Source: a bacterium
Lineage (GTDB): Bacteria > Bacteroidota > Ignavibacteria > UBA10030
Direction of reading: 5' to 3'
Assembly (NCBI GenBank): GCA_043803945.1
Contig: JAZDJN010000068.1
Coordinates: 1 to 19,280 of the forward strand
Length of the DNA: 19,280 nucleotides
Below, one piece after another: positions 1 to 19,137 of this stretch (the first letter of the stretch is position 1; every line of letters starts with the position of its first letter). Under the pieces are notes generated by a model. The model did not search any database and had not been told where the DNA came from. It worked only from the letters and a program-made list of their open reading frames with translations. The position numbers and the translations under genes were made by a program.

Positions 1-2409
1 GAAGATTATCATGAACAACTCGGCTCTCCAGCTATTGATGCTGGTGATCCTGGATTCTCATACGCTAATGAGCCATCGCCTAATGGCAGCAGAGTGAATA
101 TTGGTGCCTATGGGAACACAGCGGAGGCAGCGAAGAGCTCATCGGGCGGCTTGCCTACACTGACAGACTATTATGTGAATGCGTCCACCGGAAGTAATAC
201 AACAGGTGATGGTACACAGACAAAGCCATGGAAGACAATTACATATTCTCTGGGCAACATAACCGGCACTGGACGCACGCTGCACATCGCTGCGGGAACA
301 TACAATACGACACTTGGTGAGACATTCCCGATACTGATGAAGAATGGTATCTCGCTCATAGGAGCGGGTATGGATGTCAGCATCATTGATGCGAGCTCGA
401 GTGACATGGTTATAAAGTGTTTGAGTATTGTTGATGCTGCAACACGAGTCGAAGGATTTACGGTCAAAGGTGGAAAGGTAACTGCGTCGTCCTCCGCAGG
501 CGCCGGTATATTCATCTCAGCCGGTTCTATGTTGAAGGTTGCAAACAATAAGATCACTGGAAACATTAATGGTTCAGTGGGAAAAGGAGGAGGACTCTAT
601 ATAGAAAACTCCTCACCATGGGTAGTAACCAATACGATTAGTGGCAACAGTGTTGGAGCTTCTGGAGATGGAGCAGGGATCTATATCACAAATGGATCAC
701 CGGTGATAGAGGGGAATCGAATCATAAGCAATGTTGCCGGAAATGCGAACTATGGTGGTGGAGTATTCATTTCCGGATCGACAAGTGCACCAAGGATAAT
801 AAATAATCTGATTATAAAAAATCCTGAGGGCGGGATCATCTGTGAAAGCTACTCTAAACCGCGCATTATTAACAACACGATTTGCGAGAACTCCGGCCCC
901 GGCATTATGATATCATCGGCCAATCCTGATACGATTATGAATAATATCATCTCGTTGAATTCAGGTTACGGGATCAATGAGAGCGGGACGACAAGCGATC
1001 CCGGGAAAGTCTGGTACAATCTCTTTTATGCAAATAACTCTGGTGTATATAACGATGAGGGAACGACAGAGTACTATACAGTAAGCACATTGAACACGAC
1101 GGTAAGCGAAGCAAAGAATAATCTTGAGGGCGATCCGCTTTTTCTTGATCGTAAGAATGGAGACTATCATGAAAGGGCGGGGTCTCTCGCTATCGATGCC
1201 GGTAACCCAGCCTCTTCATATGGTAGCGAGCCCGCACCGAATGGCAGCAGAGTAAATATCGGGGCATATGGGAATACAGCGGAAGCGGCGAAGAGCATAC
1301 CAAGCGATCTCCCGAATTATTCGGATTATTATGTGAATGCATCCGGCGGCAATAATGTAACCGGAGATGGATCGCAATCGAGGCCGTGGCAGACCATCAC
1401 CTTTGCACTCGGTCAAATTACCGGCACAGGCCGGATGCTTCATGTTGCAGCCGGCACATATGATACGACGCTGGGTGAGACCTTTCCGATCGTTGTAAAG
1501 AACAGTGTCTCGATGGTTGGCGCCGGAAAAAATCAGAGTATTCTTGATGCTTCCTATACAAACCTTGTTCTCCAATGCATCGGTATTGTTGAGCCTTTAA
1601 CTTCAATTGAGGGATTTACGATTAAAAGGGGAACACTCCCGTTAAATTTTTCATCGGCGGCAGGAGTCGTTGTTGCAGCCGGATCAAAACTGCGAATTAC
1701 CGACAATGAAATCGTCGAGAACACCAATCAGTCCTGGGGAAATGGCGGCGGCATGTATATCGCCAATTCTTCGCCTGCTATCGTGAATAATACAATCAGC
1801 CGGAACAGCCCCGGCACATTTGGCAATGGTGCAGGAATATATATTTACAATTCTTCACCATTGATTCAGAATAATACAATTACAAACAACAAATCGGGAT
1901 ACACGAGCTACGGGAGCGGTATCTATGTTACCGGAGCCACCAGCTCTCCGAGAATCCTCAACAATATCATAACTCTAAATGTCGAAGGTGGTATTAATTG
2001 CGAGGGTTCCTCAAAACCCAGGATTATCAATAATACAATATCGGACAATACGACCGATGGCATTGTGATATCTTCGGCGAATCCGGATTCAATCATTAAT
2101 AACATTATCTCCTTGAATTCAGGTTATGGTATCAATGAAACGAACTCGATCAGCGATCCGGGGAAAATCTGGTACAATCTCTTTTACTCTAATAGTACAG
2201 GTGTCTATCGTGATGAAGGAACATCGGACTACTACACAGTGAGTACATTGCATGCTTCGGTTGCAGAATGCAAGAATAACATTGAAGGCGATCCGATGTT
2301 TATTAATAAGATCGATGGAGATTATCGGCTCCGTATTGGATCTCCGGCAATTAATACCGGCGACCCGGGAGCTCCTCTCGACTCCGATGGCTCACGCGCT
2401 GATATTGGT
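1..2409 (+). repeat. Tandem in-frame repeat of a 1158-bp (386-codon) beta-helix module: the tail of an upstream copy (1-93) plus two full copies (94-1251 and 1252-~2409).
   Basis: RVNIGAYGNTAEAAKS restarts at nt 94 and at nt 1252, exactly 1158 nt apart. The two units are colinear throughout (DYYVNAS.G.N.TGDG.Q..PW.TIT..LG.ITGTGR.LH.AAGTY.TTLGETFPI ... SLNSGYGINE....SDPGK.WYNLFY.N..GVY.DEGT..YYTVSTL ... GDY). The window begins with the end of a further copy. Confidence 0.9.
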
Positions 2410-5400
2410 GCGTTGTACTATCAGACTCAGGCACCTGCGGTTTCTGTGCTCAGCTCCCCGAGTAATGGTGCAACTGCGCAGCCTACTACGCTCACATTGA
2501 GCTGGACTGCATCCGCCGGTGCGACGAAGTACCATCTTCAGGTCTCAGCATCCTCGGCGTTTACACTTCTCGTTGTTGACGATTCTACACTCACTGGAAT
2601 ATCACGATCGGTTGGTCCTCTAGCAAACAATACAACATATTATTGGCGTGTGAGGGCGGGAAGCTCAGCAGGATGGAGTGCATTCTCCGGGAGTTGGAGC
2701 TTCACAACGGCCGCTATCTCCACGCTCCTCGGTGAGTACAAATCCGATGCCAACACGGTTCTCCTGATGCATATGAACGAAACCAGCGGCTCAACAGTGA
2801 GTGATGCAAGCAGTTATGGCAACAACGGCATCGCAACTGGGACAACGATCTCAGATGGAAAAATTAGTAAAGGGAGAAGTTTTAATGGTGCTGGTGATTA
2901 TATTTCTGTTCCTCATTCCTCGTCATTAAACTATTTGAGTGAATTGACTATTGAAGGATTCTTTAGAATAAGTTCTGCTGTAAATTATGCAGGCATCACC
3001 AAGGGAACGACTCAATGGGCTTATTCACTTGCTTTGATGGGTCAACGACTAGCGTTCACAAATGGAGCACCCGGTAATAGTGGTACAATAATGGCTGATT
3101 CCATTCCATCGAACACTTGGATTCATCTTGCGGCAATTATTTCAGGAGCAAATGTAAAGTTATATTTCAATGGCGTGAAAAGTGTGGAGTCAACTCTTTA
3201 TTATCCAATTACGAACAACACTGAAGAATTAACTATCGGCATCGATAAACCTGGCTCCGTAGAGTATTATAAAGGTCTAATCGACGAAGTTCGCATCTCG
3301 AATAAAGCCCGCTCGCCTCAGGAATTTAATCTTCAACTTCCTCCCAAAAATCTCTCTGTTTCCTTGGCGGGCTTGGCGGCTAATCTTTCCTGGCAGAATG
3401 GAGGCGGTGCAGTCGGATTGCTCCGGTATAAAATCTACCGCGGCTCCGATTCAACGAACGTTTCACTCATCGATTCAACAATTTCAACCTCATACTCGAA
3501 TTTAGGTCTTACCGCAGGTACGAAATATTATTATCGATTAAGCGCGGTTGATTCGACTGGTTTTGAAGGGGCAATGAGTTATGCGGTCAGTGCTGTTCCG
3601 CAAACCGGAGCCTCGGCGCCAACAGTTTCAACGAGTGCAGCATCCAGCATTACTTCTACATCTGCAACCTTAAACGGCTCTGTTAATCCGAACAGTTCAT
3701 CGACTACGGCGTATTTCGAGTGGAGCACGAACACGAGCTTTTCTCCACTTAATACCACTCCTGTGCAGAATATCGGTTCAGGAACTACTGCGAGCAATAT
3801 TTCAGCAAGTTTAACAAGTCTTACTCCTGGCACGACCTATTACTATCGGGTGTTTGCTCAAAATACCGGCGGTACCGTAAGAGGAACAACACAGAGCTTT
3901 TCTACAATTATTCAAGCTCCGGATGTTGTGACGTTATCATCTCCATCAAATGGTGCAAGCAGCCAGCAAGTTAGTGTATCCTTAAATTGGAATTCATCTG
4001 CGCGCGCAGTATCCTATCGTATTCAAGTTTCAACATCTCAAACATTTACTACTCTCATAGTGGACGACTCCACATTAACAACCACCGCCCGTCAAGTTTC
4101 GGGACTCTCAAATGGTGTTACGTACTATTGGCGTGTCAGCGCAAAGAATGCAGGTGGCACAAGCACTTGGTCTTCAACATGGAACTTCATCACAACAATA
4201 GTAGCTCCTGCAGCTCCAGCAATTACAGCACCGGCATCAGGATCAATAAACCAGCCGTTGAATCTGACCCTGAGCTGGACAGCTTCACTCACCGCGACTC
4301 GCTATCGCTTGCAAGTCTCAACCAGCTCGACGTTTTCTCCCTTGCTAGTTGACGATACAACACTCACATCGACTTCTAGACAGATCGGAGCGCTCTCCTA
4401 TTCAACAAAGTATTACTGGCGCGTAAGCGCTGGGAATTCAGGAGGAACGAGTTCCTATTCGACCACAGCAGATTTTACAACGATTCCCACACCGCCCGCG
4501 ACAATTAGTGTCAGTAACACCTTTACGTTCCCCGGTAAGAGCAGGGCTGGTGAATACACGGCGGCGGACTTCAGAATCATCGGACTGCCTGGATCGACCG
4601 ATGTTCCTCTAACCGATTTGCTTCCGGGTTCAAAGGGAAAAGACTGGCAGGTGTACTGGGATAATGGTGCATCGACGAATTATTTCGTCGAATTCGATGG
4701 AAGCAGTATATTCCAGTTTGGCCGAGGGAAAGCATTCTGGATTGTGGCAAAATCCCAGGTCACAATCAACCGATCGCTGACATACCCCTCCTTCAACACT
4801 TCCGGAGAAGCTGAGATTGCACTTCATGCCGGATGGAATCTCATCACGAATCCATTTTCAACAACAATTCCCTGGTCGAGAATACAAAGTGCCAATCAGA
4901 CCTCAGCGTCAATCTTCATCTTCAATGGCTCCTTTGCTTCCTCATCACTCTTTGAACCATACGTCGGGTATTACTACTTCAATGGATCGCCGGGTACGAC
5001 CCTCTCCGTACTGAAGGTGCCGTACTTTAGCCTCTATGGCAGTGTCGGCAAGCCGTTTGAAAATGTTTATGAAGGATGGAAAGTAACGATGATGCTTTCT
5101 TCTGAACAAGGACAAAGAAGCGAGACATGGTTCGGAGTATCCCGTAGCGCGAAGAATGAAATGGACGAACTCGATGTTCGGAAACCGCGAGCTCTCGGAG
5201 CCATTAATGATATGTTCTTCGATCGACCCAATTGGGATGACCGCTATACATCATTTGCTTCTGACATCCGGGAGAGAATTCATGATCTTGAGACGTGGGA
5301 TTTTACCGTGAATGTCGAGCCCTTGAAACGAGTTGTGCTTACATTTAGCGGCGTCGATGAAATTCCACTTCCTTACGAAGTCTACTTGCTCGATCATGCC

Positions 5401-5811
5401 AATGCTCAGTCTCTCAATCTGCGGAAAGACTCGATGTACAGCATTACAACGCCCTTGAAAAGCCTGCAGCTCTCCATCCTCATTGGCACAGAGGAAAAGA
5501 TCAGGGGGAAGGTCAAAGATATGTTGCCAAAAGAGTATTCGTTGAGCCAGAATTTTCCCAATCCATTTAATCTCTCAACGAGTTTCAACGTAATCATGCC
5601 GCGCCCTACCTCGGTGAAGCTTATGGTTTATAACATCCTTGGGCGGGTCGTTCGGACTCTCTTCACAGGCGACATGGAAACGGGAAGTTATTGGTTTACG
5701 TGGGATGGAAGGGACGATCGTCAATCGAGGGTACCAACCGGTGCTTATTACTGTCGTTTAGAAATTGTTGGGGAACGAACACTGATGACCAGGATGCTTT
5801 TAATTAAATGA
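1..5811 (+). CDS. Giant secreted multidomain surface protein, 5'-truncated by the window edge. Contains tandem right-handed parallel beta-helix (PbH1) modules, FN3-like domains, a LamG/concanavalin-like domain, a conserved pre-CTD module and a T9SS C-terminal sorting domain.
   Basis: Frame 1 is open from nt 1. Nt 1-93 translate to EDYHEQLGSPAIDAGDPGFSYANEPSPNGSR, matching the end of the internal module (GDYHERAGSLAIDAGNPASSYGSEPAPNGSR). The ORF-track start at 94 is therefore an internal GTG (Val), and the true start lies upstream of the window. PbH1-like repeats are present (e.g. ISGNSVGASGDGAGIYITNGSPVIEGNRII; PRIINNTICENSGPGIMISS). A LamG-like block runs about 2725-3325 (LLGEYKSDANTVLLMHMNETSG ... 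DEVRISNKARS). FN3-like blocks each end in a YYWRV...W.F.T motif (about 2431-2710 and 3343-4485). The C-terminus KEYSLSQNFPNPFN...VKLMVYNILGRVV...GAYYCRLEI (about 5536-5808) is a typical T9SS type-A sorting domain. Stop TGA at 5809-5811. Confidence 0.9.
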   Translation, partial: EDYHEQLGSPAIDAGDPGFSYANEPSPNGSRVNIGAYGNTAEAAKSSSGGLPTLTDYYVNASTGSNTTGDGTQTKPWKTITYSLGNITGTGRTLHIAAGTYNTTLGETFPILMKNGISLIGAGMDVSIIDASSSDMVIKCLSIVDAATRVEGFTVKGGKVTASSSAGAGIFISAGSMLKVANNKITGNINGSVGKGGGLYIENSSPWVVTNTISGNSVGASGDGAGIYITNGSPVIEGNRIISNVAGNANYGGGVFISGSTSAPRIINNLIIKNPEGGIICESYSKPRIINNTICENSGPGIMISSANPDTIMNNIISLNSGYGINESGTTSDPGKVWYNLFYANNSGVYNDEGTTEYYTVSTLNTTVSEAKNNLEGDPLFLDRKNGDYHERAGSLAIDAGNPASSYGSEPAPNGSRVNIGAYGNTAEAAKSIPSDLPNYSDYYVNASGGNNVTGDGSQSRPWQTITFALGQITGTGRMLHVAAGTYDTTLGETFPIVVKNSVSMVGAGKNQSILDASYTNLVLQCIGIVEPLTSIEGFTIKRGTLPLNFSSAAGVVVAAGSKLRITDNEIVENTNQSWGNGGGMYIANSSPAIVNNTISRNSPGTFGNGAGIYIYNSSPLIQNNTITNNKSGYTSYGSGIYVTGATSSPRILNNIITLNVEGGINCEGSSKPRIINNTISDNTTDGIVISSANPDSIINNIISLNSGYGINETNSISDPGKIWYNLFYSNSTGVYRDEGTSDYYTVSTLHASVAECKNNIEGDPMFINKIDGDYRLRIGSPAINTGDPGAPLDSDGSRADIGALYYQTQAPAVSVLSSPSNGATAQPTTLTLSWTASAGATKYHLQVSASSAFTLLVVDDSTLTGISRSVGPLANNTTYYWRVRAGSSAGWSAFSGSWSFTTAAISTLLGEYKSDANTVLLMHMNETSGSTVSDASSYGNNGIATGTTISDGKISKGRSFNGAGDYISVPHSSSLNYLSELTIEGFFRISSAVNYAGITKGTTQWAYSLALMGQRLAFTNGAPGNSGTIMADSIPSNTWIHLAAIISGANVKLYFNGVKSVESTLYYPITNNTEELTIGIDKPGSVEYYKGLIDEVRISNKARSPQEFNLQLPPKNLSVSLAGLAANLSWQNGGGAVGLLRYKIYRGSDSTNVSLIDSTISTSYSNLGLTAGTKYYYRLSAVDSTGFEGAMSYAVSAVPQTGASAPTVSTSAASSITSTSATLNGSVNPNSSSTTAYFEWSTNTSFSPLNTTPVQNIGSGTTASNISASLTSLTPGTTYYYRVFAQNTGGTVRGTTQSFSTIIQAPDVVTLSSPSNGASSQQVSVSLNWNSSARAVSYRIQVSTSQTFTTLIVDDSTLTTTARQVSGLSNGVTYYWRVSAKNAGGTSTWSSTWNFITTIVAPAAPAITAPASGSINQPLNLTLSWTASLTATRYRLQVSTSSTFSPLLVDDTTLTSTSRQIGALSYSTKYYWRVSAGNSGGTSSYSTTADFTTIPTPPATISVSNTFTFPGKSRAGEYTAADFRIIGLPGSTDVPLTDLLPGSKGKDWQVYWDNGASTNYFVEFDGSSIFQFGRGKAFWIVAKSQVTINRSLTYPSFNTSGEAEIALHAGWNLITNPFSTTIPWSRIQSANQTSASIFIFNGSFASSSLFEPYVGYYYFNGSPGTTLSVLKVPYFSLYGSVGKPFENVYEGWKVTMMLSSEQGQRSETWFGVSRSAKNEMDELDVRKPRALGAINDMFFDRPNWDDRYTSFASDIRERIHDLETWDFTVNVEPLKRVVLTFSGVDEIPLPYEVYLLDHANAQSLNLRKDSMYSITTPLKSLQLSILIGTEEKIRGKVKDMLPKEYSLSQNFPNPFNLSTSFNVIMPRPTSVKLMVYNILGRVVRTLFTGDMETGSYWFTWDGRDDRQSRVPTGAYYCRLEIVGERTLMTRMLLIK

Positions 5812-5825
5812 GGACGGATAATTAG

Positions 5826-6308
5826 ATGAGTTTAGAGCCCACTAAACACACGAAAGACACTAAAGGTGTTAAAAGATCAAAGCTCATATATCCAGAAGAG
5901 AGTTATGCCATCATTGGAGCTTGCTTTAATGTTTACAAACTAATGGGATGTGGTTTTCTGGAGGCGGTGTACCAAGAATGTCTCGAGATTGAATTCAGTA
6001 CTCAGAATATTCCGTTTCACTCTCAATTTGAATTAACGTTGAAATATCGAGACCACCCACTGAAACAACATTTTAAACCTGATTTTGTCTGCTACGAGAA
6101 AATCGTTATAGAATTAAAGGCTGTATCAACACTTGTTGATGAACATCGTGCACAGGTCCTCAACTATCTCAATGCGACCAAGATGCAACTCGGTTTGCTA
6201 GTGAACTTTGGTCATTATCCAAAATTAGAGTATGAGCGGTTCATATTAACTACAGATGGTGCAAAGAATCAACCTATCAATCTACAGATGGAATGTGACA
6301 TACATTAA
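5826..6308 (+). CDS. GxxExxY family protein (PD-(D/E)XK nuclease superfamily).
   Basis: The family motif is present in MGCGFLEAVYQECLEIEF (G-F-L-E-A-V-Y = GxxExxY). A PD-(D/E)XK-like core is seen in FKPDFVCYEKIVIELKAV, followed by HRAQVLNYLNATKMQLGLLVNFG, typical of this family. The gene starts 14 nt after the upstream stop, with GAGGA about 13 nt upstream of the ATG. No alternative in-frame start occurs before the conserved core. Confidence 0.85.
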   Translation: MSLEPTKHTKDTKGVKRSKLIYPEESYAIIGACFNVYKLMGCGFLEAVYQECLEIEFSTQNIPFHSQFELTLKYRDHPLKQHFKPDFVCYEKIVIELKAVSTLVDEHRAQVLNYLNATKMQLGLLVNFGHYPKLEYERFILTTDGAKNQPINLQMECDIH

Positions 6309-6347
6309 TGAGAGAAATATTTTGTGTATTCCGTGTGTTCCGTGGGG
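5838..6347. repeat. Imperfect inverted-repeat pair (~27 bp arms) bracketing the GxxExxY ORF.
   Basis: The left arm is 5838-5864, CCCACTAAACACACGAAAGACACTAAA. The right arm is 6321-6347, whose reverse complement is CCCCACGGAACACACGGAATACACAAA. About 21 of 26 aligned positions match by eye. The left arm lies inside codons 5-13 of the ORF (PTKHTKDTK). Confidence 0.75.
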
Positions 6348-6376
6348 ATGATTAATCACAAATAAGGATTGAAGCC

Positions 6377-6901
6377 ATGCAGCGTATGTATCATCGAATG
6401 AAGTCAATAAGTCTGATTCTTTGCGGCGTTATACTCTTTGAGTCCCTGATGATAACCAAAGGATGGGCAGGCGAAGATATTGTCGTGAAGAATATTCGAT
6501 TCGAGTTCACAGGGAATAAAGTGTTGATTCACTACGATGTCATCGGCCCTGCCGGTCAGCAGTACAACATTAAGGTGTTACTCAAGAGAAGAAAAAATCC
6601 GCGGTTCGAATTTGTTCCAAAAGCAATTTCGGGTGATGTCGGAGAGGGCCGAAGCGGGGGGTATGGTAAGCAGATTGTCTGGGAGATTGAACGCGACTTT
6701 CCGAACGGTCTGGATGGTGATGATTTCTATTTCCGCATCGAAGCCGAGGTAATTACAGCGGGATCATCTCTTCTCTACTATCTGGGGGGAGGGGCGGTCG
6801 TAGTGGGTACTGCAGCATATTTCCTCCTGATGAAGAAGACCGATAGTGGCGTCAGCGAAGGAACGTTCCCCAAACCGATCGGTCGACCGACCGGCTATTG
6901 A
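6377..6901 (+). CDS. Hypothetical membrane-anchored protein: N-terminal signal peptide or anchor, beta-rich extracytoplasmic domain, C-terminal TM helix.
   Basis: The ORF is 174 aa. There is an N-terminal hydrophobic stretch (ISLILCGVILFESLMITKGWAG) and a beta-strand-like alternating pattern (IVVKNIRFEFTGNKVLIHYDVIG...YNIKVLL...KQIVWEIERDF...FYFRIEAEV). The C-terminal hydrophobic helix is LLYYLGGGAVVVGTAAYFLLM, followed by KK. AAGGA lies about 11 nt upstream. The start is uncertain; in-frame ATGs also occur at 6386 and 6401. No family was recognised. Confidence 0.6.
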   Translation: MQRMYHRMKSISLILCGVILFESLMITKGWAGEDIVVKNIRFEFTGNKVLIHYDVIGPAGQQYNIKVLLKRRKNPRFEFVPKAISGDVGEGRSGGYGKQIVWEIERDFPNGLDGDDFYFRIEAEVITAGSSLLYYLGGGAVVVGTAAYFLLMKKTDSGVSEGTFPKPIGRPTGY

Positions 6902-6971
6902 TGTTTATTGGATCTTTGTGACAATCCAGCGAGGGATATTATTTTTCGATACTATTCAATGTTCCATATTA

Positions 6972-7079
6972 CCCACGAAACACGCAAAATACACGAAAGA
7001 GGTAATAGACAATCCGAGTAAAAACAAACCAAATCTGTGAAGATGAGCAATGTTTTGTATGTTTAGTGTGTTTGGTGGG
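6972..7079. repeat. Second, ORF-less convergent pair of the same inverted-repeat family (29-bp arms, 50-nt spacer).
   Basis: One arm is 6972-7000, CCCACGAAACACGCAAAATACACGAAAGA. The other is 7051-7079, whose reverse complement is CCCACCAAACACACTAAACATACAAAACA. About 22 of 29 positions match by eye. Both arms share the CCCACnAAACAC core with the arms at 5838 and 6347. Confidence 0.7.
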
Positions 7080-7163
7080 CCAAGCAGATACTTTTCTTTT
7101 TTAAATATTTGCATTGTCATTTTTCACTTTGATATTTGATAGTGATATCGTTTTGGAGGTCCT

Positions 7164-8357
7164 ATGAAATCTTCTATGAATGTTTTAATTGTCTGTGTGC
7201 TCTGTGTGTGTTTTCTCAGCTCAGCACACGCTCAGATAGTGACAGGTGAGAGTAATACTGGATCGCTCCGGTTCTCCGGAAAGAAACCGATAGATACGAC
7301 ACCTCCCACGATTGAGCTTCTAGAACCTATAGAAACGGTACAGCGAGGGCTCAAAATAGTGCGAGACGAGGGAGTGGTCATAAAAACAAAGAACAATCCG
7401 GTGAGGATCAAAGGTATCGCATTTGACTCAAGCGGCATAGCATCGTTGACGATTAACGAAAAGGATGTCTTGCTGAGAAAAACCATGAGTGGTTTTGAGT
7501 TTGTCGATGACGTTCTTCTAAAGTCGGGCGTGAACGAGATCGAAGTCCTGGCAACGGATCAGTATAAGAATTTCAACCGCATCGTGTTGAAGGTGCAACG
7601 AGAAACGCTTGCCGATCTCCGCCTTGGCGATAACTATGCCCTCATGTTTGCAAGTGATCGTTATAATGAGTGGCCCCCCCTGATTAATCCGATTAATGAT
7701 GCGCGGACCATCAAGAAAGAGTTAAGCGATTCTTATGGCTTTGAGTGTCCGCTGATAGAGAATCCAACGCTCGACACGGTATTTTCTACGCTGAGAGAAT
7801 ACACCAAGAAACAATTCGGCCCGAATGATCAATTGCTTATATTCATTGCAGGTCATGGGCATTTTGACGAAGATTTTAAAGAAGGATTTATTGTGACGAG
7901 CGATTCGAAGTCGAATGATCTAAGCAGGAAAACGTATATCTCCCATGAGCGTCTTCGCTCGATTATCGATGCAATCCCATGTCAGCACATCCTCCTGATC
8001 ATGGATGTCTGCTTCGGAGGAACATTCGATCGTTCTATTGCGATGGGAATAAGCAAAGGAGGGGATAATGAGTACTCAGATATCTCCGACCCCGAGTTTA
8101 TTCTCCGAAAGATGAAATATAAAACGAGGATATATTTGACATCCGGCGGGAAAAGTTATGTGCCAGATGGGCGCCCGGGTCAGCATTCGCCATTTGCGCG
8201 CAAATTCTTAGATGCCCTGCGCGGATTCGGCGGGAGAGATAAGATCCTCACACTCAAGGAGATTCTGGTTTATCTCGAGCGTGTGAATCCGGAGCCGCGG
8301 TATGGTGAGTTTGGAGGTAATGAACCTGGAAGTGATTTTCTTCTCATTGCGCGATGA
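7164..8357 (+). CDS. Caspase-like cysteine peptidase (family C14, clan CD) with an N-terminal signal peptide and an Ig-like domain.
   Basis: The signal peptide is MKSSMNVLIVCVLCVCFLSSAHA-Q. A beta-sandwich-like N-domain follows (PPTIELLEP...VRIKGIAFDSSGIASLTINEKDV...GVNEIEVLATDQ). The caspase fold begins at NYALMFASDRYNEWPPLINPINDARTI. The catalytic-dyad context is LLIFIAGHGHF (His231, nt 7854-7856) and HILLIMDVCFGGTF (Cys283, nt 8010-8012). A strong RBS (GGAGG) lies 5 nt upstream of the ATG. Confidence 0.85.
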   Translation: MKSSMNVLIVCVLCVCFLSSAHAQIVTGESNTGSLRFSGKKPIDTTPPTIELLEPIETVQRGLKIVRDEGVVIKTKNNPVRIKGIAFDSSGIASLTINEKDVLLRKTMSGFEFVDDVLLKSGVNEIEVLATDQYKNFNRIVLKVQRETLADLRLGDNYALMFASDRYNEWPPLINPINDARTIKKELSDSYGFECPLIENPTLDTVFSTLREYTKKQFGPNDQLLIFIAGHGHFDEDFKEGFIVTSDSKSNDLSRKTYISHERLRSIIDAIPCQHILLIMDVCFGGTFDRSIAMGISKGGDNEYSDISDPEFILRKMKYKTRIYLTSGGKSYVPDGRPGQHSPFARKFLDALRGFGGRDKILTLKEILVYLERVNPEPRYGEFGGNEPGSDFLLIAR

Positions 8358-9247: not shown

Positions 9248-9607
9248 ATGAGGGATGTTATGATTCGTATACGTGTTGTGAAGCCTCTTAAAAAGTTTCG
9301 AGTTCGGTTGGAGCTGACAAACGGCAAGAATAAGATTGTGGACCTTGATCCCTATTTGCGAGGCCCCATATTTGAACCGCTTAGGTCCGACCGCAAGTTG
9401 TTCAGTACGGTCTCAGTGGATCCTGATTTAGGCACGATTGTATGGAAGAATGGAGCAGACATCGACCCTGATGTACTTATTGAGGGTTGTAAATCTGCAT
9501 GGATGGAAAAAACGAGAGAAGCACTCCCCACATCTTCTCGGTATAAAACTACCATTGAAACATTTGCTGTCAAAGAAGCAAAAAAGCTGTATAAAAGGAA
9601 AAAGTAA
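9248..9607 (+). CDS. DUF2442 domain protein.
   Basis: The sequence MIRIRVVKPLKKFRVRLELTNGKNKIVDLDPYLRGPIFEPLRSDRKLFSTVSVDPDLGTIVWKNGADIDPDVL matches the DUF2442 pattern (V..V.....L.L.F.DG....VDL......GP.F.PL.D...F..V.VD...GT..WPNGADI.PD.L). The start may instead be the ATG at 9260, which has GAGGGA just upstream. The basic C-terminal tail is not part of the domain. Confidence 0.75.
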   Translation: MRDVMIRIRVVKPLKKFRVRLELTNGKNKIVDLDPYLRGPIFEPLRSDRKLFSTVSVDPDLGTIVWKNGADIDPDVLIEGCKSAWMEKTREALPTSSRYKTTIETFAVKEAKKLYKRKK

Positions 9608-9826: not shown

Positions 9827-10036
9827 CGGGGAATCCAGATCAAAGAATTGCTCGAGCGTTCTGCTCCACATCCTTTAAAGCGAAAACATTGTTGGATAGA
9901 TTCTACCCTTTACTCTATCGCCTGTTTGTCTGTAAGGTAAAAGTTGCTGGCATTGCCATGTATGCAATATTTCCGTTCGATATACAGGATTTCTAGATAA
10001 GGATAAAGTCTATCTCTGTGGAAAGGTTGTAGCGAT

Positions 10037-13000
10037 ATGAAAAGGTATCTGCTCTCTTTCTTTCTTGGTTTCAATCTTCTCTTGTTCGCAGATTTGAATG
10101 CCCAAACCATCGTACCGCAGGTCAATGCATTTGATTCTGCAAGTCCTCAAGTAGGCTTTCCCTTTTCAGATGGATTTGAGAATGGATTGGGCAATTGGAT
10201 TGTCAGTGGATCGGATTGGGACACAACATCTGCAACGTCAAGAACTGGAAGGTATTCGATTACCGAGAGCCGGATCGGGTACTATCCTGCAAATATTATT
10301 GCAACGATTACCTTAGCCGCCCCTTTGAATTTAAGCTCAGCAATATCTCCCGTGGTGAGATTCTGGCATAAATATTCTCTCGGAAGTAATGATAATTATT
10401 ATGTTGAGGTTTCGACGAATGGTGGAACAAGCTGGACAGCACTTAGAAGTTTTTATTCTTATTCCTCAGGTGCAATCCAAAATACATGGACGCTGGAGCA
10501 ATATGATCTAAAGAACTATCGCGGAGCATCAGTGAAGGTGCGATTCCGCCTGGAGTCGGATGGTACAAACCAGAGCGATGGCTGGAATATCGATGATGTA
10601 TCCATAACCGAATTAGAGCCGTCGGGATCCATTCCCTTTTCAGATGGATTTGAAAATGGATTGAGCAAATGGATCATCAGCGGATCGGATTGGGATACGA
10701 CGTCTGTGACTTCAAGAGCAGGAAATTCTTCGATCACAGAGAGCCGCACAGGATATTACCCGGCCAATGGCAATGCAACGATTACTCTCGCCACATCATT
10801 GAATTTAAGCTCGGCAATAGCTCCCGTGCTAAGATTCTGGCATAAATATTCTCTGGGAAGCAATGATAACTACTTTGTTGAGGTTTCAACGAATGGTGGA
10901 TCAAGTTGGACAACACTAAAAAGTTTTTATCCATATTCATCAGGGGCAATCCAAAGTACGTGGACACTGGAGCAATATGATCTAAAGAACTACCGTGGAA
11001 CAACAGTTAAGGTGCGATTCAGCCTGGAGTCGGACGGAACGAATCAGAGCGATGGCTGGAATATTGATGATGTATCCATAACTGAATTAGAGGCATCTGC
11101 ATCCTTGCCATTTTCAGATGGCTTCGAGAATGGATTGAGCAATTGGTTTGTAAGCGGCTCTGATTGGGACACAACGACTGCAACCTCAAGAGCTGGTAGG
11201 AGTTCGATTACTGAGAGCCGGCTTGGATATTATCCGGCGAATGGAAATGCAGCGATTACATTGGCTGTTCCTTTGAATCTAAGTTCGGCAATATCTCCCG
11301 TGTTGAGATTCTGGCATAAATATTCTCTCGGAAGCAATGATAATTACTATGTCGAGGTTTCAACGAATGGTGGAACAAGTTGGACAGCACTCAAAAGTTT
11401 TTATCCTTACTCCTCCGGAGCAATCCAAATCATGTGGACACTGGAGCAATATGATTTAAAAAACTATCGTGGTTCAGCGGTTAAGATACGATTCCGCCTG
11501 GAGTCGGATGGAACAAACCAGAGCGATGGCTGGAATATAGATGACGTATCCATAACTGAATTGGAGACATCGGCTTCTTTGCCCTTTTCAGATGGATTCG
11601 ATAATGGCTTGAGCAAATGGCTCTTCAGCGGATCGGATTGGGACACAATATCTACGACGTCAAGGACAGGAAGGTATTCGATTAACGACAGTCGTATCGG
11701 ATATTACCCGGCGAATGGAAATGCAACAATCACACTCGCGACCCCGTTGAATTTGAGTGCATCTATATCTCCTGTATTAAGATTCTGGCACAAAGCTATG
11801 ATTAACAAATACGATTATGCCTATGTTGAATTATCAACGGATGGCGGATCGGTCTGGATAAAATTAGGTCAATACGGTTACGACTTTTACCAGAGTACCT
11901 GGAAGATGGAGCAATACGACCTACAAAACTACCGTGGACCGACGGTGAAGATACGTTTTCGATTGTATGTTGATGGGAATACATCGGTAGCTGATGGATG
12001 GTATATCGACGATGTAGAAGTGAAGGAAAATCTAGCCACACCAACGCTCTCTCTTCCATTTAAAGATGGGTTTGAGAATGGACTCACCAATTGGATAGTG
12101 AGTGGATCGGATTGGGACACCACGTCTTCGACCTCAAGAACTGGAAGATCTTCGCTCACAGACAGCCGGATAGGATCTTACCCGATGAATGGAAATGCGA
12201 CTGTTACATTGGCAACTCCATTGAATTTGAGCTCTGCAGTATCTCCTTTGCTAAGCTTTTGGCACAAGGCGATGATCAATGATTATGATTACATGTATGT
12301 GGAAATATCAACGGACGGCGGATCCGTCTGGACAAAATTAGGTCAATACGGTTACGATTTTTACCAGAGCACCTGGACGATGGAACAATTCGATCTCCAA
12401 AATTACCGTGGATCGACAGTGAAGATACGGTTTCGATTGTATGCTGATGAGAACACCTCGGTTGCTGATGGATGGTATATTGACGATGTAGAAGTGAAGG
12501 AGAGAACAACGGCGCCAATGGTATCTCTTCCATTCATTGATGGTTTTGAAAATGGATTAAGTAACTGGATAATCAGCGGGTCGGATTGGGACACGACATC
12601 ACAAAATTATCGAACGGGACAATATGCAATTACGGAAAGTCGGCTTGGGAATTATCCCGATTATTCAAACGCATCAATCACACTCGCAGGATCATTAAAT
12701 TTAACATCAGCACTCTCTCCCGTTATACGATTCTGGCATAAGTACGCTACGGCTACCTATGAGAACTCTTATGTCGAGGTTTCTACGAACAACGGGAGCA
12801 ACTGGACTACTATTAAAACAATTAGCTATGGCACACAAAGCACATGGAAAATGGAGGAAATCAGTTTAAATAGTTATCGCGGTGGGACTATAAAAGTACG
12901 GTTCAGATTTAAATCTGACGACTCAAACAACAATGATGGTTGGTATATCGATGATGTACTCATCGCTGACTCTCCCTTGATCAAAGTTCTTTCACCGAAT

Positions 13001-16000
13001 GGCGGAGAGATGATCCAGCCGGGAACAACATGTAAAATCAGTTGGATTGCAGTTGGTTTAAGTGGCTCACGTCTTGAGTACAGTCTTGATGATACCAGCA
13101 ATTGGGTGTTTATCTCAAATATTGCCGCCACAACAGATAGCTATAACTGGCTTGTGCCGGGTGTCTCGTCATCTCGCTGCAGGATAAGAGTAAGCGATGT
13201 CAATAATTCGTTGATCAATGACATCAGTGATAGTATGTTTATTATAGGGGCGACCGGTTCCATGTTGCCATCAGTAACAACAGTAACTGCGACTTCAATC
13301 ACATCTTCGACCGCTTCACTGAACGGCACTATTAATCCGAATGGCTCTACTACAACTGCGTATTTCGAGTGGGGCACAAGCAGCGCACTTGCTTCGTATT
13401 CTACGACACAATCGCAATCGATTGGTTCAGGCACGAGTGCCATTACGTTCTCAGCAAGTTTATCAAGTTTAACTCTGAGTACCAACTATTATTTTCGTGC
13501 AGTAGGACAGAATAGTGCAGGTACACAGAAAGGATCGATTATTAGTTTCGTTACAGGCGGTGCGGTTGGCATTCCTACGATAACAAGTTTTTCCCCAACC
13601 TCCGGTCCAATTGGCACAGCAGTTACTATCACAGGCACAAACTTCAATCCCACCGCTTCCAATAATATCGTCTACTTTGGCGCCGTAAAGGCAACGGTGA
13701 CATTAGCCACTTCAACATCACTCACGGTGACCACACCGACAGGAGCCACCTATGCGCCGATCACAGTGACGGATACAACTACGCACCTAATGGCGTATTC
13801 TGCATCACCGTTCAATGTAACATTCACAGGTGGTGGATCTGTTACAGCAAGCTCTTTTGCAGTAAAGGTTGACTTCGCGACGGGGACTAATCCGTGTGGA
13901 TTAGCCATCGGTGATGTTGACGGAGATGGAAAAACCGACTTGGTGATTTGTAACAACACGTCAAACACAATATCTGTATATCGCAATACGGCGATAACTG
14001 GAACACTAGAGGCTAGTTCTTTCGCCGCAGGTGTGACTTTCGCAACAGCGGCCAGTCCAGTGAGTGTTGCACTCGCTGATTTTAATCGTGACGGCAGGTT
14101 AGATATTTTAGTTGCGAATTATGAGGCCTCGAGTGTTTCCATTCTACAGAATTCGAGCACTATTGGAAATATATCATTCAGATCGAAAGTAGATTTCAAC
14201 GTTGTCAGCCAGCCGTGGGGATTAGCCGTCGGAGATATCGACAAGGATGGAAAACCTGATTTTGCGGTGACCAACTATTTAAGTAGTATCGTTTCAGTAT
14301 TTAAAAATATCGAGAACGGACAGAATCTCTCCAATATCTCCTTTGCAACCAAAGTGGATTTGACAACAGCTGGATCGCAACCATTCGGCGTGGCACTTGC
14401 TGATATTGACTCTGATAGTAAGGTTGATCTAATTGTTTCGAATTATGTTTCTCAGAAAGTAAGTGTCTTTAAAAACAATAGCACCATCGGTGATATAAGT
14501 GCTGGATCCTTTCAAACAAGAGTGGATTTTTCAACGGGTACGAATTTAAGAGATGTAGTTATAAGTGACATTGATGGAGATGGAAAGCTTGATCTTGTGC
14601 TTGGCAATGATGGAGGAAATGTTGTTTCAATCATGCGAAATACGAGTAGTGTCGGTTCTATTACAGCCTCATCGTTTTCTCCAAAGGTAGACTACGTTGT
14701 AGGTAACTGGCCCGAGCATTTGGTGATTGCTGATATTGATGGCGACGGGAAATCGGATATTATAACAGGTAACAATGGTAGTGGAACGTTATCCATGTTG
14801 AAGAATAAAAGCACTATTGGCAATATTGATGCAACATCTTTTTCCTCCAAGATAGATTTCACAGTCGGTTCGTTGCCTGTGAATCTCAGTGTTGGTGTTG
14901 CAGATTTCGATATGGACCAAAAGCCAGATTTGGCTGTACTTAATGAATACAGTAATACCATATCAATATTTCGCAATACTATTGGTACTCCTAAAATAAT
15001 GGGCGAGTACCAACCTGATTCCAACACAGTTCTCCTTCTTCATATGAACGAAACCAGCGGGACAAAACTAACTGATGAAAGCGGCAAATCAAACCACGGA
15101 ACAGCCACTGAATCTCTTAAGCCTGAGAGTGGTAAATTCGGCAATGGATGGGGAGTTACGAATAAGAACCAGCAAATCATCGTTCAACACCATCCGACGC
15201 TGAACGCCGGCAACGAACCAATGACAATCGAGATGTGGGTAAAAGCAAGAATGTCGCCGACATATGGGAAACGGCTTGCAAGCAAGTTCCATACTGGTCC
15301 GCCATATAGAGGATGGATACTTGCTCTGACCCCGAATAATTATCGGTTCGGGGGAATGACAAACACGGGCCAAACAGAGAGCGATGTAACAAATGTCTCG
15401 GGCCCCACTTCTCTCGCAGATGGGAAATGGCATCACGTGGCGCTGGAGATATCCCTAACGGAAATGAGGGTGTATGTTGACGGTGTTCTGGAAGGGACAG
15501 CTTCAATTACCAATGTCAACTCCACAGACAACGCGGGGATAATCTATTTGAACGAAACAGGAGGCGAAGATTGGTCGGGAGTCTTTGATGAGTTTCGTAT
15601 TTCGAATGTTGCTCGCTCACCACAAGAATTCAATCTCCAGCTTCCGCCCAAAAGTCTCTTGGCGTCCTCGGCGTCCTTGGCGGTTAACTTGTCATGGCAA
15701 AATGGGGGCGGCGCAGTTCCATTCATGCGATACAAAATTTACAGCGGTAACGATTCTTTAAATGTCTGGCTTATCGATTCCACAACGAATACGAACTTCA
15801 CGAATTCCGGATTAGCGCAGGGGACAAGGTACTTCTATCGTGTGAGTGCAGTCGACTCAACTGGATTTGAAGGGGTAAAGAGCTACGCAGTGAGTGCCAT
15901 ACCGCAAACCGGCGTCTCAGCGCCAACAGCCACAACAAGTGCAGCATCTGCTATTGCTTCTATGTCAGCTACGCTGAACGGTTCTGTCAATCCAAACGGA

Positions 16001-18382: not shown

Positions 18383-18571
18383 CTCCATCCTTCGATGAAC
18401 TCAGGATGGAGATTCTGGAGGAGAAGAAGAAAAACTCCACAGTGAGCTTGTCGAACTGTGAAGTCAGAAGATCTTGTGAAAGCTATCAATCTCCACCCTT
18501 CGATGAACTCAGGATGGAGATTCTGGAGGAAAAGAAAAAAAACTCCACAGTGAGCTTGTCGAACTGTGGAG
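18383..18571. repeat. Two tandem composites (108-bp period), each made of hairpin A, a purine-rich linker and hairpin B, immediately upstream of the GIY-YIG gene.
   Basis: Hairpin A is CTCCATCC-TTCGATGAACTCA-GGATGGAG at 18383-18411, and again at 18491-18519 with the stem arm CTCCACCC. Hairpin B is CTCCACAG-TGAGCTTGTCGAA-CTGTG(A/G)AG at 18435-18463 and 18543-18571. The linkers ATTCTGGAGGAGAAGAAGAAAAA and ATTCTGGAGGAAAAGAAAAAAAA are also conserved. Confidence 0.9.
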
Positions 18572-18607
18572 AAAGAAGGCGCAGTAAATGAAATAAGGAG
18601 GGAGGAC

Positions 18608-18907
18608 ATGAATAAGACGTGGTACGTCTATATCTTGCTATGTTCGGACAACTCATATTACACAGGTAGAACATCGGAGCTCATCAGACGTCTTCAAGAA
18701 CATAAACGAGGGATCGGAAGTGAGTACACAAGAATTCGTCGACCTGTGAATTTATTGTGGTATGATGTATTTCCAAACGAGTTTCAAGCTCACTGTGCCG
18801 AGAGGCAGATAAAAGGATGGATAAGAGCAAAGAAAGAAGCTTTAATGAAAAATGATTTTGAATTACTGATAAAATTATCACGTAGCAGGTCTTCTAAAGA
18901 TGTGTAG
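18608..18907 (+). CDS. Small stand-alone GIY-YIG nuclease family protein (UPF0213/COG2827-like).
   Basis: The sequence MNKTWYVYILLCSDNSYYTGRTSELIRRLQEHKRG ... AERQIKGWIRAKKEAL contains the GIY (VYIL) and YIG (YYTG) motifs. It also has the conserved Arg region and the ...E.QIKGW.R.KK tail typical of this family. The start is placed at ATG 18608 because AAGGAGGGAGG lies directly upstream. The ORF-track start at 18566 lies inside hairpin repeat B. Confidence 0.85.
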   Translation: MNKTWYVYILLCSDNSYYTGRTSELIRRLQEHKRGIGSEYTRIRRPVNLLWYDVFPNEFQAHCAERQIKGWIRAKKEALMKNDFELLIKLSRSRSSKDV

Positions 18908-18914
18908 GATATTC

Positions 18915-19106
18915 CTCCATCCTTCGACAAGCCTTCGCCCTGAGCTCAGGCCGAAGGGCTCAGGATGGAAGCGGTTTCTTTTTATAGATGGAAATATTAT
19001 TTAGAACTCCACAGTGAGCTTGTCGAACTGTGGAGTAAGGAAAAACCATTCTCCATCCGTTGCCAAGCTTTCGCTCTGAGTCCAGGCCGAAGAGCTCAGG
19101 CCAGAG
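18915..19106. repeat. Downstream hairpin-repeat cluster: an A-type stem with a nested palindrome in its loop, a perfect B hairpin, and a degenerate A-type copy.
   Basis: At 18915-18970, CTCCATCC-TTCGACAAGC[27-nt palindromic insert containing CCTGAGCTCAGG]TCA-GGATGGAA. At 19007-19035, CTCCACAG-TGAGCTTGTCGAA-CTGTGGAG. At 19051-19106, CTCCATCC-GTTGCCAAGCTTTCGCTCTGAGTCCAGGCCGAAGAGCTCA-GGCCAGAG (degenerate). Confidence 0.8.
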
Positions 19107-19137
19107 GTTTAAGATGCTATCAAAAAAAGGGTAAGTC

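Follow-up and report, generated by a model that had tools for sequence, protein, structure and literature searches.

Why does a small nuclease gene lie between two inverted copies of a 27-nt repeat, and why does the same repeat pair recur, empty of any gene, at the next junction of the operon? The question arises from a 19,280-nt stretch of DNA (positions 1 to 19,280 of contig JAZDJN010000068.1, assembly GCA_043803945.1; hereafter the window) from a bacterium of the Ignavibacteria. The gene belongs to PDDEXK_3/GxxExxY, a large bacterial family without known role (12,061 clusters at 50% identity, E <= 1e-3). The 2012 survey of PD-(D/E)XK proteins gives the function of PF13366 as "unknown, multiple transfers" (PMC3424549), and our search of the literature found no description of GxxExxY function, of the arm repeat, of peptides encoded by the repeat or of the gene-plus-arms architecture. 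The locus gives a concrete and testable proposal for the family, namely a minimal nuclease with a putative cognate 27-nt arm of three 9-bp sites.

On the evidence below, we think it rather probable that the window holds a mobile selfish cassette with arms that serve as recognition sites, probably for the nuclease it encodes, and with derivatives like miniature inverted-repeat transposable elements (MITEs) or like REPINs, the hairpins formed by paired repetitive extragenic palindromic (REP) sequences. The window would thereby contain two copies of one small element family, a full cassette and a miniature without an open reading frame (ORF).

Four arms in two inverted pairs

The core CCCACNAAACAC, counted with at most one mismatch across the 19,280 bases, occurs four times in the window, always at this locus, while shuffled sequence is expected to hold 0.17 copies and none of 200 shuffles reached four. 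An inverted-repeat search joined these copies into two pairs, as had been proposed from the letters of the window alone (the sequence-only reading); only the right arm of the first pair had to be moved, by one base. Pair 1 (5838-5864 / 6320-6346) has 27-nt arms with 81% complementarity and a spacing of 455 nt, and pair 2 (6972-6998 / 7053-7079) has 27-nt arms with 78% complementarity and a spacing of 54 nt. Each arm consists of the 9-mer unit CACNAAANA three times in tandem. Pair 1 encloses the GxxExxY/PDDEXK_3 nuclease gene and pair 2 only 50 nt without an ORF (Table 1). An outer segment on the left is common to the window and to L061, the locus of the closest full element, and the cassette therefore reaches at least about 11 nt beyond the left arm. 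No target-site duplication is visible at either pair, in agreement with the sequence-only reading.

Table 1. Positions of the arms, gaps and nuclease gene in the window, and of arm units and solo arms at other loci
Feature	Locus	Position	Strand	Remarks
Intergenic gap 1, 565 nt	window	5812..6376	+	occupied by cassette; stop of 1905-aa T9SS-type gene to start of 174-aa membrane-protein gene
GxxExxY/PDDEXK_3 nuclease ORF	window	5826..6308	+	160 aa as read in this copy; conserved domain 5877-6257
Outer-left segment TGAGTTTAGAG	window	5827..5837	+	counterpart in closest full element L061: TGAGTTTACGG
Left arm L1 CCCACTAAACACACGAAAGACACTAAA	window	5838..5864	+	three CACNAAANA 9-mers; agrees with metagenome consensus ttGCCCACGAAACACACgAAA.ACACGAAA
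Right arm R1	window	6320..6346	-	minus-strand reading CCCACGGAACACACGGAATACACAAAA
Intergenic gap 2, 262 nt	window	6902..7163	+	contains ORF-less pair
Left arm L2 CCCACGAAACACGCAAAATACACGAAAGA of ORF-less pair	window	6972..7000	+	
Interior of ORF-less pair, 50 nt	window	7001..7050	.	final bases GAGCAATG similar to bases just inside R1 GAGAAATA
Right arm R2	window	7051..7079	-	outer flank 7080-7091 CCAAGCAGATAC similar to L061 outer right flank CTGAGTAGTTAC
9-mer unit	L188			CGCGAAAAG
9-mer unit	L189			CAAATGAAA
9-mer unit	L190			GATGAACCG
9-mer unit	L196			CACAGAGGA
9-mer unit	L059, first gene			ATCGCAAAG
9-mer unit	L059, third gene			ACACGGATA
Solo arms	L024	4186/7394/8694		
Solo arms	L048	1386/2444		
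Solo arms	L053	926/4522/5791		
Solo arms	L054	2204/9717/10255/11217		
Solo arm	L031	8486		
Solo arm	L051	10295		

Both pairs are insertions

Using homologues of the membrane protein (56-60% and 45% identity), we found three lineages (L062/L063, L064/L065 and L066/L067) that share the gene order of the window: a large beta-helix protein of the type IX secretion system (T9SS) type, the membrane protein, a caspase-domain protein and another large protein. Between the stop of the large-protein gene and the start of the membrane-protein gene these relatives have 11, 50 and 13 nt, compared with 565 nt in the window; the gap between the membrane-protein and caspase genes is 262 nt in the window, but L062 has 20 nt there and L066 34 nt. 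The short gaps of the syntenic relatives thus identify both window pairs as insertions. Indeed, neither pair is fixed, both being missing from all three relatives, and the ORF-less pair shows presence/absence polymorphism at an orthologous gap, from which it is absent in L062 and L066. Each copy entered a formerly tight operon junction among the genes for the large secreted protein, the membrane protein and the caspase. Arms of this kind account for some unexpectedly long intergenic gaps in compact operons. The closest nuclease homologue, on L061, lies in a gene neighbourhood unrelated to that of the window.

In L064 the gap between the membrane-protein and caspase genes (5305-5502) measures 196 nt and holds an independent inverted pair of another 9-mer type (CGCGGAGA / ATCGCAGAG), CGCGGAGACGCGGAGATCGCAGAGAACCGCAGAGG having ...CGCGGCTTTGCGCCTTTGCG as its partner. 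The window and L064 thus record two separate colonisations of one junction, each by a different member of the element class.

The nuclease and its start

The window protein matches the GxxExxY model TIGR04256 (E 8.7e-42; 142.2 bits, cut-off 35) over profile positions 2-116 of 116, and PF13366, PDDEXK_3 (E 2e-41; 141.5 bits, cut-off 22). All invariant columns of the family are kept (G25, E30, Y33, E40, D70, K82, H91, Q94 and Y98); in this domain numbering the catalytic residues are D70 and E80-x-K82, and the QxxxY motif is Q94-x-x-x-Y98. An AlphaFold2 model had a mean predicted local distance difference test score (pLDDT) of 88, and its nearest solved folds were Cas4 SSO0001 (4ic1; E 4e-4, template modelling score 0.52), lambda exonuclease and RecE. 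A sequence search of the PDB returned no relative, PADLOC gave a marginal 13-bit match only, and PHROGs gave no match. Compared with the L061 gene, nonsynonymous divergence (pN) was 0.10 and synonymous divergence (pS) 0.76, at which synonymous sites are saturated. Judged by its conserved residues, its low pN at saturated pS and its predicted fold, the protein looks functional, and GxxExxY proteins may represent a minimal PD-(D/E)XK enzyme of the Cas4/RecB/lambda-exonuclease type.

Nearly all of the 119 closest homologues start with MSKLIYPEESY, which begins at residue 17 in the window. There, the canonical start codon reads AGA for ATG, the ribosome-binding site GGTG for GGAG, and a 1-nt deletion brings an upstream ATG at 5826 into frame. 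With the canonical start lost, translation would have to begin at that ATG. The closest homologue, P0002 on L061 (84% identity), has ...ACGAAAGGAGATGACAATGTCAAAACTT... after its left arm, compared with ...ACTAAAGGTGTTAAAAGA-TCAAAGCTC... in the window. We confirmed the claim of the sequence-only reading that the left arm falls within codons 5-13 of ORF 5826-6308 and encodes PTKHTKDTK. The left arm of relatives ends 7-30 nt short of the start codon and is not translated, being part of the 5′ leader; the repeat-encoded tail is an accident of the window copy. A conserved, functional N-terminal tail was considered and rejected, since nearly all homologues lack it. The few database proteins with N-terminal extensions TKHTKY, HEKHER or HTKHAK owe them to gene callers running on into the same repeat; the arms thus give rise to spurious peptides, such as PTKHTKDTK, and to false N-terminal extensions in gene calls. 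The left arm of the ORF-less pair was likewise confirmed to yield a spurious translation, a 64-aa ORF (6846-7040) that reads LPTKHAKYTKE across the arm and is a by-product of the repeat.

Inverted arms accompany the GxxExxY family

We compared the flanks of 18 distinct GxxExxY genes with sufficient surrounding DNA, drawn from genome, metagenome, viral and plasmid collections, with 254 random positions in contigs of the same kind. When the 170 nt upstream were compared with the 260 nt downstream, 15 of the 18 genes and one control position had an inverted repeat with a score of 12 or more. Of the three low scorers, both L059 genes proved to be flanked by inverted repeats in a later search (I3 and I10), leaving L111 as the sole exception. 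The gene-plus-arms architecture is general for the GxxExxY family; paralogues without such flanks, the prospect raised by the sequence-only reading against its own proposal, did not turn up in any number. Named carriers include Calditrichota, Cytophagia, Victivallis, Ignavibacteriota, Candidatus Scalindua and Bacteroides finegoldii; a Didemnitutus (Verrucomicrobiota) genome carries an ORF-less pair, and Gemmatirosa a hairpin adjoining its gene. The family is also carried by the 4.1-Mb Scalindua contig JALDRA010000001.1 and the 1.8-Mb contig_54644 of ERZ25039512, and the Bacteroides finegoldii carrier has it in a radA / GxxExxY / FAD-protein locus (NZ_OY725952.1). A genome scan with patterns back-translated from a single protein, which were too specific, returned four loci only, one of them (L004) solely through the repeat-encoded peptide.

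These results bear on the simplest alternative, that the four arms are a chance similarity or neutral intergenic sequence. Apart from the low complexity of the AC-rich 9-mers nothing favours it, and it is already refuted by the four matches where 0.17 were expected, by the excess of flanked genes over controls, by arms that are 85% identical between the window and L061 at saturated synonymous divergence, and by the presence of the arm motif in more than 150 unrelated contigs.

Arm type broadly follows the nuclease clade. CACGAAA-type arms flank every one of the 11 genes with at least about 60% identity to the window protein, and more distant GxxExxY genes mostly have other 9-mer types (Table 1). 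In L059, from Candidatus Scalindua, three GxxExxY genes lie within 20 kb, and no two of them share an arm type. Such coexistence in one genome of several arm types, each having a gene of its own, provides natural cognate and non-cognate controls.

The L059 genes (6894-7449, 9962-10432 and 12434-13350) are set among glycosyltransferase genes, and an additional copy of the left arm at the third forms an adjacent empty pair (13031 / 13326). On a Fusobacteria plasmid (L194, CP102406.1), a GxxExxY gene at about 1513-1887 has flanks of about 45 nt (CAGATTTAATCCGTGTACCTAT...) that are direct repeats, not inverted ones. In L058, a Y1_Tnp (IS200/RAYT-like; RAYT, REP-associated tyrosine transposase) gene at 744-1280 lies 9 kb from a GxxExxY cassette on the same 1.8-Mb contig; it is probably unrelated to the cassette, and bears on the question of whether the miniatures could be moved by a hairpin transposase of the host.

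Miniatures outnumber gene-bearing copies

A pattern scan for the arm motif yielded a metagenome sample of at least 120 contigs, ranging in GC content from 31% to 70%, with at least 271 arms and at least 85 convergent pairs. Tabulating the contents of such pairs, as the sequence-only reading had proposed, we found mostly short loops without an ORF: among the contigs listed the interiors were mostly 3-100 nt (median about 25 nt), and among the matches listed a GxxExxY gene lay between the arms in four contigs, with interiors of about 390 nt. Miniatures thus far outnumber gene-bearing copies. The consensus ttGCCCACGAAACACACgAAA.ACACGAAA in the logo of these arms reaches two to five bases past the search pattern; the logo of the seeded arm is partly circular, the sample being motif-selected, a circularity that does not affect the partner arms or the bases beyond the pattern. 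Overall, the same repeat, paired or solo and rarely enclosing a gene, recurs in many bacterial phyla.

Some of the short copies retain parts of the gene. Aligned with the full cassettes L104 and L169, both L183 and L166 consist of the left arm, ATGAAAGA, a gap of about 340 nt, an ORF tail and the right arm, the tail being the final ~30 nt of the ORF (GAATGGGAGCGGTTCGT..CTGA). L002 has a truncated copy with the first 33 nt of the ORF in tandem to a full copy, and L004 keeps codons for PKLIYPTE. Since codons from the ends of the ORF are retained, these few copies are internal-deletion derivatives. The ORF-less pair of the window resembles the cassette beyond its arms: 6312-6346 and 7045-7079, which include the right arms, are 77% identical over 35 nt, and the outer right flank is L061-like. 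It is also short and non-coding, with terminal arms of 27-29 nt and an interior of 50-54 nt, as a MITE would be. Derivation from a coding copy is demonstrable for the other short copies named above; by its two likenesses to the cassette, the window pair is a candidate MITE-like derivative, as had been proposed. A target-site duplication, which a MITE would also have, was not found. A blastn search of plasmids with a perfect hairpin gave no match, for which low-complexity masking may be responsible.

The same counts can be read the other way round, with the hairpin as the primary repeat, either host-maintained or independently mobile in the manner of REP sequences, GxxExxY genes homing into its loops and empty pairs being their targets. 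Hairpins outnumber gene-bearing pairs by about 20:1 among the matches listed, 41 of 43 mid-sized interiors lack any ORF remnant, arms also occur singly and in arrays, and arm types are nested in one another's loops (L126 1471-1834; L157 2813-3042; L041 1426-1559). Such a history does not account for the clear deletion derivatives L183, L166, L002 and L004. Moreover, each nuclease clade has its own arm type, as expected if arms and gene travel together and less so if genes invade, and the filled and the empty pair of the window are both new relative to the syntenic loci. A hairpin-first origin therefore seems to us rather improbable. One of the nested loci, L157, contains a start remnant of a second GxxExxY subfamily (ATGACAGAAAATGAAATA) within a CACGAAA-type pair.

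Phage-like IMG/VR contigs carry a further form of the repeat. Solo arms with near-perfect consensus TTAACCACGAAACACACGAAAGACACGAAAGG occur several per contig, in one orientation and without an inverted partner (Table 1). They lie 0-50 nt upstream of ribosome-binding sites and start codons, and by crude ORF calls the next gene shares the orientation of the arm in 11 of 15 cases, which suggests a leader or expression role for the solo arm.

Conservation acts on arm sequence, not on base pairing

A 27-bp stem could also matter as RNA. In that case the stem would be processed by RNase III, or would stabilise or regulate neighbouring messages, the nuclease gene would ride in the loop, and a lone left arm would be an unstructured AC-rich leader before a ribosome-binding site. 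Solo arms with perfect consensus at such sites, mostly co-oriented with the next gene, fit this explanation, as does the anatomy of the cassette, which equals that of the Coxiella 23S intervening sequence, a 28-bp stem with one small ORF in about 430 nt that RNase III cuts mid-stem (PMC4990558). In addition, cassettes have the orientation of both neighbours in 16 of 17 co-directional contexts and typically fill the space between the stop codon of one gene and the start of the next, so that transcription with the host operon is probable.

Folding of both window pairs, suggested by the sequence-only reading, gave the expected stems. The ORF-less pair folds with -30 kcal/mol (z = -2.1), and the arms of pair 1 close the minimum free energy (MFE) fold of the cassette, for which z as a whole is -1.1. 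These z-scores are modest, and the whole gap 6899-7166 folds no better than shuffles (z = -1.2). In Rfam, no family reached its gathering score in the window, and at E <= 1 there was only a sub-threshold likeness to long miRNA-precursor hairpins. Some GxxExxY proteins are, according to the sequence-only reading, encoded in intervening sequences of 23S ribosomal RNA (rRNA). Rfam found no rRNA in the window, and none of the 190-odd loci holds an rRNA motif. Promoters and terminators were predicted in the window no more often than in shuffles. A transcription terminator was rejected as an identity for the hairpin because on both strands a T-run lies 5′ and an A-run 3′ of it, the reverse of a terminator.

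The substitutions in the arms speak more directly. Where the 9-mers vary, the two arms of a pair agreed no more often than shuffled partners did (0.29 versus 0.30, and 0.51 versus 0.49). Of the 63 differences between arms that 16 gene-bearing pairs show, 13 would give G·U on the sense strand, another 13 would do so on the antisense strand, and the remaining 37 are transversions, which break pairing on both strands. Between the window and L061, 23 of 27 arm positions are identical, despite the saturation of synonymous sites in the gene between the arms. The arms are thus conserved as sequence, not as base pairs: without covariation or G·U bias, and with this high identity, what is constrained is the sequence of the individual arm, as for a protein-recognition site. 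Arm sequence identity across contigs of such different GC content likewise exceeds what a stem needs. We therefore regard an RNA function as the main role of the arms as unlikely. Of the intervening-sequence-like, processed stem among the alternatives of the sequence-only reading, the anatomy and the co-orientation stand, and the covariation, the G·U excess and the rRNA location that would go with it were not found. Of the alternatives offered there, the mobile cassette is best supported, by the insertions, the flanks of 15 of 18 genes and the abundant ORF-less pairs.

A candidate mechanism and its weak points

In the mechanism that we propose for the selfish cassette, a full copy of about 520 nt would comprise the outer segment, a 27-nt arm, a ribosome-binding site, a GxxExxY gene of about 125 aa and the inverted arm. 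The arms would be binding or cleavage sites placed in the manner of terminal inverted repeats, and the cognate GxxExxY nuclease would recognise three 9-bp sites at each end; this fits the conservation of the arms as sequence, the tracking of clades and the 85% arm identity. Cuts at or between the arms might then start copying or movement through host repair, and the second copy, two arms around 50 nt and comparable to a MITE or REPIN, could be mobilised in trans. RNase III may cleave the 27-bp arm duplex in host RNA, as it does the stem of 23S rRNA intervening sequences, and such clipping would make insertions harmless.

Several observations weigh against the selfish cassette. We know of no strand-transfer activity for a 125-aa PD-(D/E)XK nuclease, so movement would need host repair, a step that is pure inference. 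Direct repeats were absent from the flanks of 55 metagenome hairpins inspected, where complementarity often runs past the arms, and exact element ends could not be defined from the window pairs or from hairpin flanks. An empty site at high identity was not found when viral contigs were searched for two phage-borne hairpins. ORF remnants appear in just 2 of 43 mid-sized interiors, so most hairpins could be a primary unit and not derivatives. A pure terminal-repeat model predicts neither the conserved solo arms without a partner nor the same-orientation arrays, with two arm types alternating, at 1150-1500 of L115. Clade tracking is not strict, as L192 (48% identity) keeps CACGAAA-type arms. Finally, with its canonical start codon and ribosome-binding site lost, the window copy may be in decay.

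Relation to known elements

The 23S intervening sequences of Leptospira and Coxiella (PMC4990558) are the nearest in anatomy. They too measure about 430-520 nt, have terminal inverted repeats of 27-28 bp and one small ORF of no assigned role, are sporadic and apparently horizontally transferred, and are embedded in and co-oriented with the host transcript. They differ in position, helix 25 or 45 of 23S rRNA as opposed to junctions between protein-coding genes, and in their ORF, which encodes a four-helix-bundle S23p protein and not a PD-(D/E)XK nuclease; the cassette arms, in addition, are built of 9-mers. The origin and mobility of ORF-bearing intervening sequences have been in question since the early 1990s (PMC4990558).

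The REPIN/RAYT systems (PMC3116915, PMC3337134) also combine a single gene between inverted short repeats with many dispersed gene-less pairs, and can have multiple cognate gene-repeat types in one genome. Their enzyme, however, is an HUH Y1 (IS200/IS605-like) transposase, not a small PD-(D/E)XK nuclease, and their repeat is a GTAG-tagged REP hairpin and not a 27-nt array of 9-mers. RAYTs are typically single-copy, whereas GxxExxY genes are multi-copy, as the three within 20 kb in L059 illustrate.

MITEs and their insertion-sequence parents share with the cassette the terminal inverted repeats, deletion derivatives that outnumber the coding copy, an intergenic location and presence/absence polymorphism. 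In contrast to them, we saw no target-site duplication, the arms are nearly unchanged across phyla, and a search of the cassette found no transposase of a recognised family, PF13366 being the only match.

Homing endonuclease genes, among them that for the PD-(D/E)XK enzyme I-Ssp6803I, are small selfish nuclease genes that spread via cleavage and host repair. The cassette could spread in the same manner; unlike them, it lies outside introns and inteins, has its own inverted repeats and occupies differing insertion sites, with no single homing site.

A wider proposal, which we advance only tentatively, is that GxxExxY proteins may be responsible for the upkeep and spread of a very large class of 9-mer palindromic elements across many phyla, as a PD-(D/E)XK counterpart of RAYT/REPIN and of the same kind as the ORF-bearing 23S intervening sequences. 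Each clade would read its own arm "iterons", and the arms would pair in the transcript and be clipped out, so that the elements survive in operons.

Other features of the window

The caspase-domain protein of the host operon (7164-8357) matches Peptidase_C14 and, weakly, the EACC1-associated caspase model. Its gene stands between genes for very large secreted beta-helix/fibronectin-type proteins with T9SS-type C-terminal tails (94-5811 and 10037-18373). A small ORF with a DUF2442 domain (9248-9607; E 1.1e-14) partly overlaps an antisense ORF of 114 aa without a family match.

Directly after the 2778-aa ORF, at about 18609-18907, an ORF of about 100 aa encodes a GIY-YIG domain (PF01541, E 4.6e-17). 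Its flanks (18383-19110) are built from two short hairpin repeats, A and B, arrayed as A-B-A-B-[gene]-A'-B-A''. CTCCATCCTTCGATGAACTCAGGATGGAG is repeat A, which occurs at 18383 and 18488 and in longer variants at 18914 and 19046; CTCCACAGTGAGCTTGTCGAACTGTGGAG is repeat B, at 18435, 18542 and 19007. This second small-nuclease cassette, of a different kind, parallels the GxxExxY cassette in that a stand-alone nuclease gene and palindromic repeats occupy an intergenic gap.

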